Shown: positions 36 through 33,199 of the stretch, one piece after another | Position numbering within the stretch: the first letter of the stretch is position 1 | Layout: each line of letters begins with the position of its first letter | Source: a virus | Taxonomy: Duplodnaviria > Caudoviricetes | Reading direction: 5' to 3' (one strand) | DNA length: 41,367 nt | Virus record (IMG/VR): IMGVR_UViG_3300021121_000008 | Span: 1 to 41,367 of that record | Program-made: the position numbers and the translations under genes | Notes under the pieces: model-generated | What the model was told of the DNA's origin: nothing | The model's database searches: none | The model's input: the letters and a program-made list of their open reading frames with translations, nothing else

Positions 36-191
36 ATGAGCGACGAGGAAAAAGAACTGGTCGCCCTACTGCTGGATTACTACGAAGAAACCGCCAGCCG
101 TCAGCCGAAAAACGCATCCGAACGCAAATTGTCGGAAACGCCCGACATCCATTTTTATCAACTGAGAAACACCATCAAACCCAATCAATAA
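36..191 (+). CDS. Small hypothetical protein (51 aa, MSDEEKELVALLLDYYEE...)
   Basis: Manual translation; TAATG overlaps with both the upstream partial gene and the ERF gene. Confidence 0.55.
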   Translation: MSDEEKELVALLLDYYEETASRQPKNASERKLSETPDIHFYQLRNTIKPNQ

Positions 192-943
192 TGAACGAAC
201 TCCAAAAAATTGAACCCGGCACGGTTGAACACGTCCCGGCCCTGACCTCGCTCAACATCCTCGAAGCCGCCGTTCGCGGCGGCGTGACCTCGGAAAACGT
301 CGCCGTGGTCAAAGAACTAGTAGCCATGCGCCGGGAGGAGTTGGCCCTTGAGGCCAAGGCCCGGTTTAACCGCGCTTTTTTCAAGCTGCGGAAAGAAATC
401 GCCAGCATGGACTTCTACGCCGACAAGGCTGCAATGAACGGCGACTCAGTCGCCTACACCTATTGTTCCGAAAAGGAGCTTTCCTCCAAGTTGGAGCCGG
501 TTCTATTCAAGCACGGGTTCGCCATGCTTTTTGGCCAGCGTGACGAGGGGGAGAAGCTGGTTGCCATCATTACCTTGGTTCACGAGGAGGGCCACGAGGA
601 GACGCGGGAATACTCCGTGCGGGCCGGAGGCACCAACCGCATGAAAGACGCAACAGCCGCCGATACGGGGGCCACAACGAGCGCATGGCGGCATCTAGTC
701 ATCAAGATGTTTGGCATCAAATCCCGCATCCGTGAGGAGGACGACGCCAGGAATCTCGGTGAGCAGAATGTGAAAATCACCGCCGAGCAGGCGAACGAGT
801 TGGAGCATCGCGTTGCCCTGACCAACAGCGACAAAGCCGCGTTCCTGCAATTCGCCGGAGCCACCTGCTTCAAAGACATCCCCGCCGCCAAATTTGGCTC
901 GCTGGATGCCATTTTGAAGCGCAAGGAAAAGGCTGGAAAATGA
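191..943 (+). CDS. ERF-family single-strand annealing protein (recombinase)
   Basis: N-terminal EAKARFNRAF helix, YTY..EL...EPVLFKHGF, TLVHEEGHEE, ERF-type GATTSAWRH..MFGI..EDDA; adjacent to exonuclease. Confidence 0.8.
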   Translation: MNELQKIEPGTVEHVPALTSLNILEAAVRGGVTSENVAVVKELVAMRREELALEAKARFNRAFFKLRKEIASMDFYADKAAMNGDSVAYTYCSEKELSSKLEPVLFKHGFAMLFGQRDEGEKLVAIITLVHEEGHEETREYSVRAGGTNRMKDATAADTGATTSAWRHLVIKMFGIKSRIREEDDARNLGEQNVKITAEQANELEHRVALTNSDKAAFLQFAGATCFKDIPAAKFGSLDAILKRKEKAGK

Positions 944-1731
944 TTGTCCACGCCCACTATCAGCAGAAAAACGGTGGCGACCCAACCGAGCAATGGATTC
1001 AAGCCCGGACGGGCTGCGTCACGGCGAGCGAGTTTGGCGACATCGTTGACCTTTCCGGCAAGCTGCGGACTGGCGAAATGCCCCGGACGTACATTGCCGA
1101 GAAAATTTTCGAGCGTTGGACAGGCCGGAAAAAACCGAGCAACTTCTTCACGGTTGAGGTCAATAACGGAGTCATTGTAGAAGAAAAGGCCGCTGCTTTC
1201 GCCTCGCTCGAATACGGTCTGGAAATCCAACACGTTGGGTTTATCTCCAACGACGACGGCACGGTAGGCGCATCGCCCGACGGTCTGATTGGCTGGGATG
1301 GCTTAAAGCTCGACCAGCCAACCAAGCTGCCCGCCTGCTTTAAGCCGACCGCCAACGTAACCGGAATCGAAATCAAGTGTCCGGCCCTGACCACCCATAT
1401 CAAGTGGCTTATGGATGGCGGACTACCCAAGGAGCACTTGGCGCAGGTGCAAGGCAGCATGTGGATGACCGGCTGCGAGTCGTGGCATTTCCTGTCCTAC
1501 CCCCTCGCCTGCTATCTGGACGGCTTTCCGCCTATTCACCTCGTCGTCGAGCGCGACGAGGCTTGGCAGGCCAATTTTTCCGAGTCCATCGCCAAATTTA
1601 TGTCGAAGCTCGACACTGAATTTGCCAAGATTGTGGAAAAGAACGGAGGCCCGCCGCCTCGGTTCGCCCAAAAATCCTACACCATCAACCCCGAAAACTA
1701 CTCCGAAAAGACCGGAGACATTGCGCCATGA
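940..1731 (+). CDS. YqaJ/lambda-exonuclease family protein
   Basis: W..AR.G.VTASEF, GASPDGLI, IEIKCP, QVQGSMWMTG motifs; ATGA overlap with ERF. Confidence 0.9.
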   Translation: MIVHAHYQQKNGGDPTEQWIQARTGCVTASEFGDIVDLSGKLRTGEMPRTYIAEKIFERWTGRKKPSNFFTVEVNNGVIVEEKAAAFASLEYGLEIQHVGFISNDDGTVGASPDGLIGWDGLKLDQPTKLPACFKPTANVTGIEIKCPALTTHIKWLMDGGLPKEHLAQVQGSMWMTGCESWHFLSYPLACYLDGFPPIHLVVERDEAWQANFSESIAKFMSKLDTEFAKIVEKNGGPPPRFAQKSYTINPENYSEKTGDIAP

Positions 1732-2021
1732 TTATCAAATGTAAAATCAACGTGTCCAAAATTGACAAGTCCAAGATGTTTGTCGGCAAGCAAGGCACTT
1801 ACCTCGACATCACGCTTTTGGAGAACAAGAACGGCGTGGACGAGTACGGAAATCACTTTATGGTGGTTCAAGACGTGTCCAAGGAAGACCGCCAAGCGGG
1901 CGTCAAAGGCGCAATCTTGGGCAACGCCAAGAAGTTGGAGCCTAGCGGGCAGGGTGCCACCCAAAAGGCCCGCCAATCGCCACCTGCCGCGACTGACGAC
2001 GGCTCTGACATTCCTTTCTGA
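1728..2021 (+). CDS. Phage single-stranded DNA-binding protein (SSB-like)
   Basis: Acidic C-terminal DDGSDIPF tail; position after recombinase/exonuclease. Confidence 0.7.
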   Translation: MIIKCKINVSKIDKSKMFVGKQGTYLDITLLENKNGVDEYGNHFMVVQDVSKEDRQAGVKGAILGNAKKLEPSGQGATQKARQSPPAATDDGSDIPF

Positions 2022-2022
2022 T

Positions 2023-2163
2023 ATGTCTAAATTCAAACTACCCGAAGTCGGCCACGCGCCGGGGATTGATGTACGCAACATCACCAAATGGCGAGACCCA
2101 AACAAGCACACGGCTACAAGCAATCCTTGGCGTCGTAGCTGCGTACCCAAGAAACCCAAATGA
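2023..2163 (+). CDS. Small hypothetical protein (46 aa)
   Basis: ATG just after the SSB stop; stop overlaps the next ATG. Confidence 0.45.
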   Translation: MSKFKLPEVGHAPGIDVRNITKWRDPNKHTATSNPWRRSCVPKKPK

Positions 2164-2279
2164 GCACTTGGCACCAAGCTGAACAAGACTGGCTCCGCGA
2201 GCCGGAGCCGGTTGACCTCGACGAAGAACTCCGCAAAGACGCCGAACGCGGCGACGAACAACGTGATTTGGAAGATTAA
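2160..2279 (+). CDS. Small acidic hypothetical protein (39 aa, MSTWHQAEQDWLREP...)
   Basis: Manual translation; ATGA coupling; fills the gap before 2283. Confidence 0.45.
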   Translation: MSTWHQAEQDWLREPEPVDLDEELRKDAERGDEQRDLED

Positions 2280-27843: not shown

Positions 27844-28839
27844 TCATTTTCGTACCCAAACGCCGTTGCTGCTCACGAACAAAAAACCCGGCGAGTTGGT
27901 CGCCGTGGCAATGTAGGTATAGTTCGTATTAACCGGTGGTAGGGTGTTCGTCGTGCTCCAAATAATCATGTTGCCGTTGGTGATAGAAAGCGTGTTCAGA
28001 TTGGTCGTCACGACGGTTGTCGCGGTTGCGGTAACGGTTGAGAGATTCGTGGAGATTGAAACGGAATCATTGTTCGTCAGCGTGTACACCGTTGGCACCC
28101 GGTCAGTCGCCAGACCGATTGACTGATAGCCGTTTGTCTGCGCGGGGGACATGCTGCCAAACTGGTCAAAATGCCACCAGCGAGTTGCCGTACCGGAGCT
28201 ATTGGTTGCGCCAGCGATATACACGTCAGACGCGCCGCCGGTATTGCCAGCGTAACCGCCGAGGTCGAGGAATAGTTGCTGCGAGCCGGTTGTAAGGTAG
28301 CCCCAAATAGCGTAGTTCAAAGACGGGCCGGAGGAGGCGTAAGGGAACGCTTGGAATAGGTAGCGGTGGGTGTTGTTTGCGGTGACACCGCTGCCGCCAC
28401 TGTCGGCACCCGCGAGCGAACCTTGGTTTTGGAGGCTGACCTCCGAAATAAACGTGTCGAGTTGTCCTGGGCCACCGAAAATCTGGCTGTTTGTCAGGCT
28501 GGGGACATTGGTCGGATTGTACGAGTAGTTCCCGCCCGCCGTGTTCGTAAGCGAGTTGGCGACAATATTGGTCGGGTAGTAACCCCCGCCGCCGGATGCG
28601 GTGGAGGAAATGAACATCACCGAGTTGGTCGAGATATTTGTCACCGAGCCGACGATGTTGGTCGTGTAGTAGTTGGTGACATTAAAAAGGATGTTGGTCG
28701 AGGCGACGACTTTCGGGTAGTTGGTGCCAAAACCAAACGAGGAAATAACGTTCGTGAGGTCGTAAAATGACGGATTCGCCGCACGGGTCAGGGCGGGAAT
28801 AAAAAGCGCGAGGACGAGGATGAGGATGAGTTTTTTCAT
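27844..28839 (-). CDS. Signal-peptide, Thr-Asn-rich fibre-like protein (331 aa)
   Basis: MKKLILILVLALFIPALTRA signal; about 20 TN dipeptides; C-terminal LFVSSNGVW module. Confidence 0.65.
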   Translation of the reverse strand: MKKLILILVLALFIPALTRAANPSFYDLTNVISSFGFGTNYPKVVASTNILFNVTNYYTTNIVGSVTNISTNSVMFISSTASGGGGYYPTNIVANSLTNTAGGNYSYNPTNVPSLTNSQIFGGPGQLDTFISEVSLQNQGSLAGADSGGSGVTANNTHRYLFQAFPYASSGPSLNYAIWGYLTTGSQQLFLDLGGYAGNTGGASDVYIAGATNSSGTATRWWHFDQFGSMSPAQTNGYQSIGLATDRVPTVYTLTNNDSVSISTNLSTVTATATTVVTTNLNTLSITNGNMIIWSTTNTLPPVNTNYTYIATATNSPGFLFVSSNGVWVRK

Positions 28840-28840
28840 G

Positions 28841-29074
28841 TCAGACCCATTTTTGGGAAACGTAATTCCAAGTGTAGGTTGAGCCAATGCCGAGGATGTC
28901 GTAGCAGGTGGCCGGGAGGTTGAGATATGGCGGGACGATGTTCGCGGTGGTTGGATTCGTCTGGGTCGCGCTGTTGTAGGATAGCTGCGGATTAGACGGG
29001 GGTTGCGCTGCCGGACTGCCGGGGGTTGAGCAGCAGGCGTTATCCGTACACGGCCATGTTGAAAATTGAGACAT
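28841..29074 (-). CDS. Small putative virion protein (77 aa)
   Basis: ATG with AAAATT context; ends YTWN...KWV; first gene of the tail operon. Confidence 0.55.
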   Translation of the reverse strand: MSQFSTWPCTDNACCSTPGSPAAQPPSNPQLSYNSATQTNPTTANIVPPYLNLPATCYDILGIGSTYTWNYVSQKWV

Positions 29075-29124
29075 AATTTTACAAAGTCTTGCTTTTACGG
29101 TAGGCTCTAATCGAATTATGTCAA
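29075..29124. promoter_or_regulatory. Overlapping divergent promoter candidates for terminase (+) and tail operon (-)
   Basis: + strand TTTACA-N17-TAGGCT; - strand TTGACA-N16-TACCGT; only 43 bp between the divergent ATGs. Confidence 0.5.
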
Positions 29125-31928
29125 TACACAAGTATGGCCTGACTTGGGCCAACGAGTACGAGCCTTTAGACATCGAATTTCACTGTATCCGTAAAGGGGC
29201 CGCGTGGTGCGCCAAAAATGGCACGAGTTTGTTTGACCACTACAAGGCCGCGCAGATGATTTTGTGGCCGGACGACCATCACCACCGATGGTCGGATTTG
29301 ACACTCAAAAGCATCCTCGACAACCAAGTGACGGTTCTAATGGGGCCGGGCGATAGCAACAAAACGTATAGCATGGTGCGTTTTGCGCTCGTGGACTTTT
29401 TTGCGTTTCCGAATAACACGCTCTCAATCGTGTCCTCAACGGACTCTCGCGGCCTTGAATTGAGAATTTGGGGCAAGATGAAAGACCTGTTTAATCGCGC
29501 CAAGGAATTTAGGGACGACCTCCCCGGCGTGGTTGTGGACTACCTGAAATGTATCACACCAGACGAAATTGACGAATCCGGCCAGCGGGCGCGGACGATT
29601 AACAAGGGAATCATTTGCGTGCCGTGCGTTGCGACTGGCGACAATTCCGGCCTCGGTCGCTACATCGGGATTAAGCCCCCAAACTCACCCGGCAAACATG
29701 ACGGGCGGTTGCGGCATTATGGGGATGAGTGCTTTCCAGCCGGGACTTTGGTTGATACGCCATCCGGCCCGGTCGCCATCGAAAAACTCAAAGTTGGCGA
29801 TTCGGTATTGAACTGCCTTGGCGAGTGCAAAGTTACGGCAACCATGAAAAGAACGTCGAGCGAGCTTGTTAAAATCAAGCTACGCGACGGGCGGCAAATT
29901 GTCTGTACGCCGAATCACCCAATCCTTACAAAAACGGGATGGGCAAATGCTATTGACATACATTCCAAAGACGTGATAGTGTCAACCCATGAAGCAATGT
30001 CTATCATGTGGGGTGAGTCTAGCGAATACGGGCTACAAGAAATTTTGCAGTCCGAAGTGTCAAAAGAAATCTTGGGAAAAACCGTGCAAGGGGTGCGGCA
30101 TAATTTTTTATCCATCGGAAAAGAGGGTTCAGTTTCATTCCAAAAGCTGCAATGCGGCTTGGAAAATGAAGCAGCCGGAAATTGTTCTGAAAATGATTCA
30201 GTCGAAAGACCTGCAAGCCATAGGGAAGAAAATCAGCGCGGGAATCAGGAAAAACGAATCGGATATGGCACGCCGCAAAATAACGTGCCGCGAGATGGCG
30301 AAAAAAGTTTGGGCCAGAAAAAAGGCAAATGGGGAGCCGCCTTACGGATGTTGTGGGGCCGGTCACAAAATGACCAAAGCGGAGGACGTATTTTCGTCCC
30401 TGTTTCCAGAAGCGAAGTACAATTACGTCGTTCCAACTGGACTGAGTTCAAAACTTGGAAACCCTCAACTTTACAGGCTGGACTTCGCATTTTTGGACAA
30501 AATGCTTTGCGTCGAATTGGATGGAAGTCATCACTGGACGCCCAAGCAAAAAGCAAAAGACTTGGCGAGGGATGCTTTTCTGAAAGCGTCGGGGTGGACA
30601 GTGTTGAGATTTACAAACAAGGAGATGCTTCAAAACCCGACGGAAGTTGTGCGAGTTGTGAGGTCTATAATTTGTCCGTCTCCGGCCACCCCAGCTATTC
30701 CGTAAACGGTCTGGCAGTTCACAATTGCCAAGCGATGAAACCGACTTTCCTCGACGCCTATTCCAACTGGATGGGTAAGCCTGACTTTAAAGGCGTCATG
30801 TCTGGAAACCCGACGGACACCCTAGACCCATTAGGAAAAGCCGCCGAGCCTTTGGACGGTTGGGATAATTTTCCAGAGCCAAAGAAAACAACAACTTGGC
30901 GCAGCCGGTTTTACAATGCTTGCGTGGTGAATCTAGTCGGCTCCGATTCCCCAAATTTTGATTACGACAGAAACCAGCCGCCGAAGTTTCCTGAATTAAT
31001 TTCTTGGCTCAAAATCGAAGCCGTCGCAAAGACTTGGGGCAAGGATTCAATTCAGTATTACTCGCAGTGTATTGGGGTAATGAAACCCGGTTTCGACGGC
31101 AAACGGGTAATTACTCGCGAGCTTTGCCGGGCTAACCGTGCGTCAGAGCAGGTTATTTGGGACGGCGGCGAACGAACCCAAGTTTACGCTATTGACCCCG
31201 CTTATGGCGGCGGTGATAGGTGTTCCGCCCTGCATGTTGAATTTGGCGTTTCCACAGAGGGGGTTCAAACCATCTTGATGCACGAGCCGAAAATTATTCC
31301 GATAAATGTCAATTTGGCCGAGTCGCCGGAGGAGCAGATTGCAAGGTTTGTTTACGCGGACACCGTTGAGCTTGGGATTCCGAGCGAGAATATATTCTAT
31401 GACGCTTTCGGAAAAGGTACGGTAGGGTTTTCGTTCGCAAAAGTGTTCGGCCTAAATCCGCCAGTTCCGGTTGAGTCAGGCGGAAGCCCTTCCGCTCGCC
31501 CGGTTCGCCACGACCTGTTTGTAACAGACAAGAACGGCACAACGCGATTGAAGCGATGCGACGAGCACTATAAAAAGAAGATTTCCGAGCTTTGGTTTTC
31601 CGTTCGGTACATTATCGAGTGCGGGCAGATGCGAGGCATGACCCAAGAAACGATTGACGAAGGTTGCCTGCGCGAATACATGGTTGTTGAAAACGGAAAG
31701 TTTGAAGTCGAGTCCAAAAAGGACATGAAGGAACGGATTGGCCGCTCCCCCGACTTGATGGACGTTGCCGCGATTGCTTGTGAAGGTTGCCGCCAGCGTG
31801 GATTTAAAATCCGCCGACTCAATGAAGATTCCCAAGACTCAAAGCCGAATCAGCTTTTGGAATGGTACTTGCAGGGCCAAAAAAAGGCGCAGCAGGATAG
31901 AACCCGCTACGCCTTGAAACGGACTTAA
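29118..31928 (+). CDS. terL: Terminase large subunit containing an intein (about 604 aa after splicing)
   Basis: P-loop-like GPGDSNKT, Walker B HYGDE, coupling motif SGNP, nuclease AIDPAYGGGD and RSPD..D. Confidence 0.85.
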   Translation: MSIHKYGLTWANEYEPLDIEFHCIRKGAAWCAKNGTSLFDHYKAAQMILWPDDHHHRWSDLTLKSILDNQVTVLMGPGDSNKTYSMVRFALVDFFAFPNNTLSIVSSTDSRGLELRIWGKMKDLFNRAKEFRDDLPGVVVDYLKCITPDEIDESGQRARTINKGIICVPCVATGDNSGLGRYIGIKPPNSPGKHDGRLRHYGDECFPAGTLVDTPSGPVAIEKLKVGDSVLNCLGECKVTATMKRTSSELVKIKLRDGRQIVCTPNHPILTKTGWANAIDIHSKDVIVSTHEAMSIMWGESSEYGLQEILQSEVSKEILGKTVQGVRHNFLSIGKEGSVSFQKLQCGLENEAAGNCSENDSVERPASHREENQRGNQEKRIGYGTPQNNVPRDGEKSLGQKKGKWGAALRMLWGRSQNDQSGGRIFVPVSRSEVQLRRSNWTEFKTWKPSTLQAGLRIFGQNALRRIGWKSSLDAQAKSKRLGEGCFSESVGVDSVEIYKQGDASKPDGSCASCEVYNLSVSGHPSYSVNGLAVHNCQAMKPTFLDAYSNWMGKPDFKGVMSGNPTDTLDPLGKAAEPLDGWDNFPEPKKTTTWRSRFYNACVVNLVGSDSPNFDYDRNQPPKFPELISWLKIEAVAKTWGKDSIQYYSQCIGVMKPGFDGKRVITRELCRANRASEQVIWDGGERTQVYAIDPAYGGGDRCSALHVEFGVSTEGVQTILMHEPKIIPINVNLAESPEEQIARFVYADTVELGIPSENIFYDAFGKGTVGFSFAKVFGLNPPVPVESGGSPSARPVRHDLFVTDKNGTTRLKRCDEHYKKKISELWFSVRYIIECGQMRGMTQETIDEGCLREYMVVENGKFEVESKKDMKERIGRSPDLMDVAAIACEGCRQRGFKIRRLNEDSQDSKPNQLLEWYLQGQKKAQQDRTRYALKRT
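29953..29980 (+). promoter_or_regulatory. Promoter candidate inside the intein: TTGACA-N16-GATAGT, 8 nt before the nested ATG
   Basis: Same geometry as other promoter candidates in this genome; TTGACA..TGTCAA inverted pair at 29953-29985. Confidence 0.5.
29989..30705 (+). CDS. Nested +1-frame endonuclease: two Zn-finger repeats + Vsr/DUF559-like PD-(D/E)xK domain
   Basis: CxxC..FCSxxC and CxxC..FHSxSC; YRLDF.....LCVELDGSHH......D..RD.FL...GWTVLRF.N. Confidence 0.85.
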   Translation: MKQCLSCGVSLANTGYKKFCSPKCQKKSWEKPCKGCGIIFYPSEKRVQFHSKSCNAAWKMKQPEIVLKMIQSKDLQAIGKKISAGIRKNESDMARRKITCREMAKKVWARKKANGEPPYGCCGAGHKMTKAEDVFSSLFPEAKYNYVVPTGLSSKLGNPQLYRLDFAFLDKMLCVELDGSHHWTPKQKAKDLARDAFLKASGWTVLRFTNKEMLQNPTEVVRVVRSIICPSPATPAIP

Positions 31929-33199
31929 CGACGACCGGAAGCCAGCCGTTCAATCGCGGCGTCGAGGGACGCCATGCTACTCATCGGGGCAGTCGGCTTG
32001 GAGCCGCTACCGCCGTTGTCAGGGGTTGACCTTTTGAACGCGGCGAGTTGTTTTTCAAGTTCGGAAATTTTTGATTCGAGCGACCGGGTTTTGAGGACTT
32101 GCCGGTCAAACGCGCCCGCCTTGTTCACAATCGCGGCGTGGAGTTTCGCCATCTCGACCGGAGGCAGCTTGCCGTTTACCATGCGCTCCTGAATCCATTG
32201 GGGGAGCTTGGCGACGTCGGTGGCTTCAATGGTTCCGAACGCGAGTTTGGCGAGTGCAAAGCCTGATTCCAGCGCGGCGTTGCCCTTGTCGTCGCCTTCG
32301 GCTGGCGCGAACAGGTGGGGATATTTCGTCACCCCTTCGGCGGCGGTTTCCTTGAACGCTTTGAGAATTTCGCCGGATTCCTTTGTCCTGGCCTCCATGC
32401 GGGCTTTTTCCATCTCGCCCGCCTTGGTCTTGTAGGTCGCCAAAGCGTTTTCCTTGGCCTTCCATGCGGCCAGCGTCTTTTCCGAGGCGGCGAGGACTTG
32501 CTGGGCCTTGATGCCGGTGCCAAATAGTTCCTCAATCTTGTCAGCGCGTTCGTTGATGTCCGTGATGGCGACGATGGCGTCAAAGTCCTCCGGTTTAGCC
32601 TGCCGGATTTCGCCGGTCGTCGGGTCGGTGACTTTTAACAGCGCGACAGTCTCGCGGGACTCCTTGTAGGTGTCGAAAAACGGTTGCTCGTACTGTTTTT
32701 TGTACTCCTCAGACTTGGTGTAGTCAACGAACTTAATGTGCTCCTCAAGTTCGTTGCGGCGTTTTTCGGCGGCGGCTACTTTGTCCTCGTAGTCTTTTTT
32801 CTCCTCCGGGGTCAGGCTGGTCGGTTTGGCCTTTTCGAGTTCCGCGAGTTTTTTCTCGTATTCCGCCAGCTTGGCCTTGCTCGCCTCGTAGGCTTGGCGC
32901 AGGGTTGCCGCCTTCTCCGGCTTGGCCTTTTCAGCCGGTTTTTCGACCGGCTTCTCTGCGGGCTTTTCGGCGGGTTCGTCACCTTCCGGCTTTTCGGTCG
33001 GTGCAACCGGCTTGGACGGCTCGGTGTCGCTCTCGCCGTGCGACTTGTCGGGCGGGGCTTCCCCCATCATTTTATCGAGGTTGGCGAAAGCGTCGTTGAG
33101 GTTCGGGGTTGAACGCTGACCGCCGGGGAGTTCAATCGGCGCAGCCGGGGCGGCAGGCGCGGCGGTGGCCGTGGCGTCGGGGGTAAGGAGGATTCGCAT
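31925..33199 (-). CDS. Putative capsid scaffolding protein
   Basis: P/E/K-rich disordered N-terminus, long coiled coils, short C-terminal helix; downstream of portal. Confidence 0.65.
   Translation of the reverse strand: MRILLTPDATATAAPAAPAAPIELPGGQRSTPNLNDAFANLDKMMGEAPPDKSHGESDTEPSKPVAPTEKPEGDEPAEKPAEKPVEKPAEKAKPEKAATLRQAYEASKAKLAEYEKKLAELEKAKPTSLTPEEKKDYEDKVAAAEKRRNELEEHIKFVDYTKSEEYKKQYEQPFFDTYKESRETVALLKVTDPTTGEIRQAKPEDFDAIVAITDINERADKIEELFGTGIKAQQVLAASEKTLAAWKAKENALATYKTKAGEMEKARMEARTKESGEILKAFKETAAEGVTKYPHLFAPAEGDDKGNAALESGFALAKLAFGTIEATDVAKLPQWIQERMVNGKLPPVEMAKLHAAIVNKAGAFDRQVLKTRSLESKISELEKQLAAFKRSTPDNGGSGSKPTAPMSSMASLDAAIERLASGRR

Follow-up and report, generated by a model that had tools for sequence, protein, structure and literature searches.

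The 41,367-nucleotide stretch analysed here (positions 1 to 41,367 of IMG/VR virus record IMGVR_UViG_3300021121_000008, Duplodnaviria; Caudoviricetes; hereafter the window) carries a contiguous intein in a likely terminase gene, and the middle of this intein is overprinted in the +1 reading frame by a gene for a zinc (Zn)-finger/Vsr-like nuclease, which is likely translated separately and likely drives homing of the element. We hold this interpretation with good confidence. The window DNA is present in 24 freshwater sequencing runs among the matches listed, with no RNA run among them; it belongs to a lake phage.

An intein with a predicted nuclease gene in its middle

Class 1 inteins are characterized by an N-terminal cysteine or serine, a TxxH motif in block B, a block F, a terminal His-Asn pair, and a cysteine, serine, or threonine at position +1. 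All sequence hallmarks of this class (Hint domain) are present in the window intein, which starts with CFPAG (first cysteine at 29730), contains TPNH at 29907–29918, and ends with HN at 30725, followed by cysteine. An initial annotation, made from the sequence alone, had proposed a complete intein with these boundaries. Profile searches confirmed this proposal: Pfam Intein_splicing matched the intein with an E-value of 1.2e-9, and the NCBIfam models TIGR01445 and TIGR01443 scored above their cut-offs for the intein and in the full precursor, respectively. An AlphaFold2 (AF2) model based on a 58-row alignment displayed the Hint fold at residues 1–90 and 311–332 with pLDDT (predicted local distance difference test) values of 95–98, and a Foldseek search with this model yielded 35 matches at E ≤ 0.001, with the gp41-1 intein as the best (E 1.9e-6). 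The intein is predicted to splice out of the likely terminase.

The in-frame middle had been described as stop-free and lacking any domain motif, and this description holds. No Pfam family matched positions 29991–30590 at E ≤ 1, and no LAGLIDADG or HNH domain was found there. According to AlphaFold, two helices (residues 86–93 and 102–118; block pLDDT 73–95) open this region, followed by pLDDT values below 50 across most of residues 121–279, and a conservation of at least 70% was found at 4 of 199 columns over residues 87–285. With no Pfam match in its middle and pLDDT mostly below 50, the window intein lacks the in-frame endonuclease of canonical inteins. A stop after the N-intein and a separate C-intein start, as in split inteins, are also absent from the window, where the intein frame is open throughout.

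For the nested +1 open reading frame (ORF) of 238 amino acids (Table 1), the initial annotation had suggested Zn-finger repeats and Vsr/DUF559-type nuclease motifs, and both sequence and structure searches agree with this assignment. Pfam DUF559 matched residues 162–224 above its cut-off (E 1.2e-14). The AlphaFold model of the +1 protein (three-row alignment, mean pLDDT 70) was most similar to the I-Bth0305I homing endonuclease's catalytic domain (3r3p; Foldseek E 1.2e-3, probability 1.00, template modeling score 0.69 of the target), followed by the DUF559 protein 3hrl and then, more weakly, by Vsr (1vsr); a Vsr-like fold is accordingly what the model predicts. None of the 53 aligned nucleases has a substitution at D165, E176, D178, G179, H182, D191, W203, or F208. 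The spacing of D165, H182, and D191 (17 and 9 residues) is identical to that of D196, H213, and D222 in I-Bth0305I, and the profile alignment to 3r3p (E 0.0085) has a one-residue offset at the histidine. The catalytic Asp, His, and Asp as well as the extra acidic residue of EDxHD enzymes are present (D165/E176/H182/D191), and the protein presumably cleaves DNA. NUMOD repeats gave no Pfam match at E ≤ 1 in the +1 ORF, which has CxxC repeats in their place; because NUMOD repeats were not detected, the nuclease, which presumably works like an EDxHD enzyme, is classed as EDxHD-type and not as a full EDxHD enzyme. Zinc binding by these Zn-finger-like CxxC repeats is putative.

The host gene is probably a terminase large subunit gene, as its C-extein matched phrog_2 (terminase large subunit) of PHROG with an E-value of 1.9e-5; Pfam, NCBIfam, PDB-sequence, and PDB profile searches yielded no terminase match. 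The motifs GPGDSNKT and HYGDE, which were read by eye, we take to be Walker A-like and Walker B-like, respectively. The intein is inserted directly 3′ of the Walker-B-like HYGDE (GDE/C junction; the slash marks the splice junction). The terminase gene is located on the + strand, and the flanking large genes are on the − strand (around window positions 28800–29120).

Table 1. Coordinates of the intein, its nested ORF, and associated features (window positions unless a locus is named).
Feature	Position	Strand	Remarks
Likely terminase large subunit precursor, 936 aa	29118..31928	+	N-extein 29118–29729, C-extein 30726–31925
Contiguous class-1-type intein, 332 aa	29730..30725	+	C1, TxxH, block F VYNLSV, terminal HN, Cys+1 at 30726
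Weak Shine-Dalgarno-like stretch GACGTGAT (candidate)	29968..29988	+	Duplex −6.3 kcal/mol, long spacing to nested ATG
Nested +1-frame ORF, 238 aa	29989..30705	+	ATG start; two CxxC repeats, helical linker, Vsr-like/DUF559 nuclease
Two CxxC Zn-finger-like repeats of nested ORF	29998–30150	+	Zinc binding putative
In-frame spacer, intein residues ~121–279	30090..30566	+	Stop-free, predicted disordered, poorly conserved
Dual-structured segment, ~85 nt	30588..30672	+	Intein VGVDSVEIYK and start of block F, overlain by GWTVLRF strand and C-terminal helix of nuclease
Free-standing nuclease	L001:167–859		Overlaps start of intein-free terminase
Free-standing nuclease	L003:2501–3175		Overlaps start of intein-free terminase
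Free-standing nuclease	L250, ORF ends near 2150		Upstream of, and overlapping start of, intein-free terminase
Free-standing nuclease	L281:~1330–2165		No adjoining terminase

Constraint on both frames and probable separate translation of the nuclease

A +1 stretch of 238 open codons would arise by chance alone with a probability of 0.6–10% and is weak evidence for a gene; the weight lies with the domain match. The intein frame, in turn, was suggested by the initial annotation to be kept open, and stop avoidance is indeed evident. Synonymous recoding of the nuclease introduced a mean of 8.5–12.2 stops into the intein frame; only 4 of 20,000 and 0 of 20,000 trials stayed free of stops. At the junctions where a codon ending in T would make an intein-frame stop, T was found in 0 of 51 cases, as compared to 53 of 121 elsewhere. 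Such junctions have T in 13 of 58 and 15 of 55 cases in free-standing relatives of the nuclease, and in 0 of 31–54 in five embedded relatives. Stops have been purged from the intein frame.

The ratio of non-synonymous to synonymous substitution rates (dN/dS) was obtained from four informative pairs of Vibrio phages, which have 28–60 differences each and are not independent of each other (a further pair, CP-T1/Rostov M3, is identical and so uninformative). For the part of the intein that lies upstream of the nested ATG, the intein-frame dN/dS was 0.04–0.07 in three of the four pairs and 0.24 in the fourth. In the middle of the intein it was 1.2–2.6 in the intein frame versus 0.03–0.19 in the +1 frame. 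Purifying selection thus switches from the intein frame to the +1 frame at the nested ATG in these phage relatives, which is the pattern that had been predicted for homologous inteins.

About 110 nt had been proposed to function in both frames. The overlap of the nested ORF with the C-terminal splicing region amounts to 118 nt, and the length that is structured in both frames is about 85 nt. Here, the intein strand at residues 287–296 (block pLDDT 82–87) is the −1 reading of the nuclease motif GWTVLRF (30592–30612), and the nuclease contributes a strand (residues 204–209) and helices (210–228), the last of which extends into block F. The register of this segment is identical in 119 of 119 loci found with a DNA pattern (see below), and the segment is retained in mini-inteins from which the nuclease has been deleted. 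Since dN/dS gives no support for constraint on the intein frame in this segment, such constraint rests on structure prediction and retention. As the last strand and helix of the nuclease share their DNA with the C-terminal splicing strands, the two are tied together and deletions leave a footprint.

Judging from sequence features, translation of the nuclease likely initiates internally at its own ATG. In 48 of 60 family members (19% expected), an ATG precedes the first CxxC by at most eight codons, and Shine-Dalgarno (SD) duplexes of −5 kcal/mol or lower were found in 27 of 48 members versus 54 of 252 control 20-mers. In many members a ribosome-binding site (RBS)-like sequence appears to be written into the last N-terminal strand of the intein. 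A hairpin sequestering the RBS at the nested start was considered and rejected (z −0.69 for the window; family mean z −0.08, with 1 of 48 members below −2). Production of the nuclease as a fusion with the N-extein and N-intein, by programmed +1 ribosomal frameshifting, would fit the start of the +1 ORF at the end of the N-terminal splicing region, the weak SD of the window, and one locus (L040) whose nuclease shares the frame of the N-intein. However, a pair of +1-frame stops (TGA TAG) in the window, ending three codons 5′ of the nested ATG, argues against such a fusion, as it leaves 9 nt for the shift. Retention of the ATG before the Zn finger in the 48 of 60 members and the enrichment of SD-like sites also speak against it, so that we regard frameshifting as unlikely. 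L040 and L176 have equal C-terminal sequences with one record frameshifted, which could represent an intermediate or a sequencing indel; L176 was assigned to the contiguous inteins, so the frameshift in L040 may be an indel.

Relatives in phages and free-standing nucleases

A tblastn search with the nuclease matched 50 records of GenBank phages, and 39 of the 40 among the matches listed coincide with genes whose annotation reads helicase, P-loop, coil-containing, or hypothetical. Six cultured phages were inspected (Pseudomonas phage MR14, Corynebacterium phage phi673, and four Vibrio phages). All six contain an intact helicase intein at DE/CHH with a +1 ORF in the same register, which is unannotated in each of the six GenBank regions. 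The phi673 publication notes the intein, its available passage does not mention the +1 ORF, and phi674 is stated there to have no intein.

In IMG/VR, a DNA pattern for the dual-coded end, which itself selects the footprint W-x-V-x-R-F, matched at least 119 loci. HN/C lies in the −1 frame of all 119 pattern matches, and E-x-DG-x-x-H is located upstream in 114 of them; neither feature is forced by the pattern. The 80 loci with full flanks (not dereplicated) comprise 69 intact inteins with nuclease, 4 split forms, 6 with truncated or deleted nuclease, all of which keep the footprint, and 1 frameshifted locus. A nuclease-only query, whose alignment was built mostly from embedded members, recovered 72 contiguous inteins, 2 free copies, and 6 unparsed loci showing an intein C-end among 80 loci from viruses; of 80 loci from GTDB genomes, 29 were classed as intein-borne and 51 as ordinary DUF559 genes. 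A peptide-pattern search of IMG/VR with the intein-frame protein found no relatives; phmmer later matched 4,684 representatives at E ≤ 0.001, unrelated inteins included. A word-limited homologue search with the nuclease gave no match, which carries no evidential weight. A protein-only signature of the tail, which is only suggestive, was found in 65 of 132 parsed and 18 of 150 unparsed sequences. The family is large and occurs in both helicases and terminases, with most members in helicase inteins, and intein-free Walker B sites (ADE/C) exist in related terminases. This patchy distribution, with intein-free sites, the phi673 and phi674 pair, and two types of host gene, suggests mobility.

The four split loci (L045, L099, L101, and L049) have an intein frame that is closed mid-way and a C-intein Met inside the 3′ end of the nuclease gene, and are candidates for new natural split inteins. 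Mini-inteins without nuclease (L056, L057, L059, L089, and L113; 141–192 aa in L056, L059, and L089) keep the last strand and helix of the nuclease in +1. Within the terminase family of the window, related inteins occupy several nearby sites, namely GIA/C, GKW/C, RNG/C, and DE/C (L239, L254, L258, L278, and P0003–P0152). The window nuclease groups with nucleases of inteins at other sites and not with those of other GDE/C inteins.

The nearest relatives of the window nuclease are free-standing genes with 41–43% identity over the full length (two sequences, L001 and L003, from 4 viral loci), which overlap the start of intein-free terminases from the same terminase family as that of the window. 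A tree of 46 nucleases (LG+G4, midpoint root) included four free sequences. They were spread over three supported groups whose other members are intein-embedded nucleases (support 97/97 and 96/88 for two of the groups, and 98/96 for the group with the window, which forms one side of the root split). A single free clade was rejected (approximately unbiased test, p-AU 1e-55), and three changes were counted. An earlier tree with distant DUF559 outgroups was unresolved, gave long-branch warnings, and was not used.

Two free copies bear a possible trace of an intein past. The nuclease of L003 ends with STILKLK, whose −1 reading is FYNFEIK at the position of block F, and in L281 the −1 reading at this position is FFNFEIKRHTNYTIN, behind a stop. 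Their block-F motif scores were 12.4 (L003) and 5.8 (L281), as compared to a maximum of 1.9 among the 51 ordinary DUF559 genes; L001 and L250 tested negative for this fossil with scores at background level (−4.3 and −6.0). Since block F occurs in inteins generally, the simplest reading is that the nuclease has repeatedly escaped from inteins. The tree is not firmly rooted and includes only four free sequences, so that the direction of movement is inferred, and we consider it likely that the nuclease gene occasionally escapes to become a free-standing gene beside an intein-free target. The L281 nuclease has an extra N-terminal stretch (MNNYDLFLKSK...) that looks like the beginning of a phage helicase gene, and its −1 frame contains a decayed intein tail. 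In the terminases beside the L001, L003, and L250 copies, Walker B deviates from DE/C (DE/I, DD/C, and DE/L). These altered sites could be a self-protection, against which speaks that L005, where no such gene was seen upstream, is likewise altered (DE/V).

Taken together, with somewhat better than even confidence we propose a widespread unannotated family whose splicing domain is partly built from the shifted-frame reading of the nuclease, so that a clean separation of the two would be impossible. Its members would pass through a cycle, traceable in public data, from dual-coded to split inteins and mini-inteins that keep the nuclease footprint, with repeated escape of nucleases to sites beside the intein-free target that can carry a block-F fossil, and inteins would be a source of free homing endonucleases.

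Proposed homing, alternative explanations, and known systems

In the proposed mechanism, the terminase precursor would be translated through the tolerated disordered spacer and then splice, whereas the nuclease would be initiated internally from its own ATG. The nuclease would cut intein-free alleles near the conserved Walker B DE/C codons in co-infecting phages, and repair would copy the element into the cut allele. The shared Walker-B-like context may explain why the element occurs in helicases as well as terminases. At window positions 191–1731, ERF-like and YqaJ-like recombinase genes form a recombination module that could serve homing repair.

Several observations weigh against this interpretation. 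The Foldseek match to I-Bth0305I is slightly above E 0.001, and the nearest sequence match of the +1 nuclease is the uncharacterised DUF559 protein 3hrl. The nuclease has no NPM and GGNG linker motifs, which are typical of the family, and a His at one family-conserved Cys position. The SD-like site of the window is weak and distant from the ATG, in a phage many of whose genes have no SD. The window is near-identical over the intein in 8 runs, and the selection figures come from homologous pairs alone; in the dual segment, most of the few changes that separate close pairs alter the intein-frame amino acid (4/5, 1/1, 2/2, and 3/3). Finally, an intein-free allele of the phage was not seen in the 8 runs compared of the 24 listed. 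In one run (X10), a commoner relative (depth ~69 versus 12) matches the ends of the terminase gene (29100–29300 and 31840–31945) and diverges inside.

The +1 ORF might also be a real gene that serves the phage, for example as a terminase-accessory or host-DNA nuclease, and not homing. The closest relatives are indeed free-standing and directly upstream of terminases, and an HNH nuclease upstream of the HK97 terminase aids cos cleavage according to the part of the source available (PMC10448857). Nevertheless, most family members reside in helicase inteins, many related terminases have no such gene upstream (L005–L008, L011, and L015), and the best fold match is a homing endonuclease, which makes this explanation rather improbable. 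Still less credible is a recently inactivated relic that is open only through the short time since its loss of function. The diverged linker motifs, the Cys-to-His change, the lack of an intein-free allele in the 8 runs, and the occurrence of decayed members in the family would agree with such a relic, but the nuclease is of full length and has its start codon and all invariant catalytic residues. Moreover, the free-standing sisters also have no NPM and GGNG motifs, and therefore the divergence of the window nuclease is lineage-wide. An assembly or sequencing frameshift in an ordinary intein with in-frame endonuclease, for which the canonical endonuclease position of the ORF could be invoked, is refuted by an independent Logan contig covering 29243–31871 (2 substitutions, 0 gaps), another covering 29100–30680 (0 differences), the lack of indels or joints in the 8 runs, and the identical layout in cultured phages and 69 of 80 loci; nor could any single indel fuse the frames, because the end of the nuclease overlaps the splicing strands in another frame. 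A domain in the in-frame middle, loss of the +1 ORF from homologues, and indels in independent assemblies had been named as findings that would contradict a dual-coding intein; they were looked for, and none appeared.

If a dual-coding homing element is indeed the correct interpretation, several consequences follow. Gene callers miss such nucleases (0 of the 6 GenBank regions checked annotate one), and many phage helicase and terminase inteins with a seemingly degenerate middle may therefore be mobile. The family would be a pool of uncharacterised, predicted EDxHD-type site-specific nucleases and a natural system in which to follow the origin and interlocking of overlapping genes. It also bears on the gain and loss of endonucleases by inteins and on their splitting, with a direction of movement that may be read from the block-F fossil. 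The Corynebacterium glutamicum phages phi673 (with intein) and phi674 (without) are a harmless cultured pair that makes homing directly testable.

The initial annotation had cautioned that alternative-frame nucleases might have been reported before, and nucleases encoded out of frame within intact inteins, some of them in terminases, have indeed been published. The available text of Gosselin, Arsenault, and Gogarten (bioRxiv 10.1101/2025.01.02.630785) describes non-canonical actinobacteriophage inteins with the nuclease in a separate frame. Like the window element, which combines an open intein frame with an intact nuclease in another frame (selection being seen in homologous pairs only), these are intact inteins with an unstructured in-frame middle, have terminases among their hosts, and include Vsr/EDxHD-like nucleases. 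According to that text, however, their Vsr-like nucleases are antisense and the sense out-of-frame type is an endonuclease VII in frame 3, whereas the window has a sense +1 Vsr-like nuclease. The architectures are called rare there and second ORFs typically lie outside the splicing domain, in contrast to the abundant, splicing-strand-overlapping ORFs found here. A spread via nucleotide-binding sites is proposed there, similar to the route via the shared Walker-B-like context suggested here. The same text proposes invasion of inteins by free-standing nucleases; the signs found here point to the reverse move, and inteins as a source of free-standing homing endonucleases would, if true, invert that published model. 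Neither a sense +1 Vsr-like nuclease that overlaps splicing strands in an intact intein nor a nuclease leaving its intein was found in the literature searched, outside of which lay most subscription papers and bioRxiv supplements; the supplements of Gosselin et al. could list sense-strand Vsr cases.

A cyanobacterial dnaX intein whose homing endonuclease lies out of frame (Phillips, DeSimone, and Gogarten, bioRxiv 10.64898/2026.09.14.751524) resembles the window element, as far as the accessible passages go, in its overlapping sense-strand ORF with SD motifs, disordered in-frame middle, and frame-dependent dN/dS switch. It differs in that a LAGLIDADG enzyme is encoded in the '+2' ORF of a bacterial gene, and an overlap with splicing strands is not reported in these passages, whereas the window has a Vsr-like +1 nuclease in a phage. 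In the fractured genes of Dassa et al. (2009; PMC2677866), the portion consulted reports split inteins flanking Vsr-like endonuclease genes, with the same nuclease class and position in the intein and an overlap of 6–69 bp between the nuclease 3′ end and the C-intein start. There the intein is split into two genes, in contrast to the open intein frame of the window; the 4 of 80 family loci that are split in the same way link the contiguous and split forms. The EDxHD homing endonuclease I-Bth0305I, whose activity was shown (Taylor et al., 2011; PMC3239194, in part), shares the C-terminal Vsr-like catalytic domain, the D-H-D spacing, and an N-terminal putative DNA-binding region, but is encoded in a group I intron and has NUMOD repeats, whereas the window nuclease is located in an intein, has CxxC repeats, and is known from sequence. 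The ShiLan insertion with its hidden HNH nuclease (Arsenault et al., 2025; PMC11855218, in the excerpt available) likewise combines an out-of-frame nuclease with an open host frame, but differs by the HNH type and the lack of a splicing domain. To these systems the present locus adds a nuclease whose nearest relatives, as judged by sequence, are free-standing genes just upstream of intein-free terminases.

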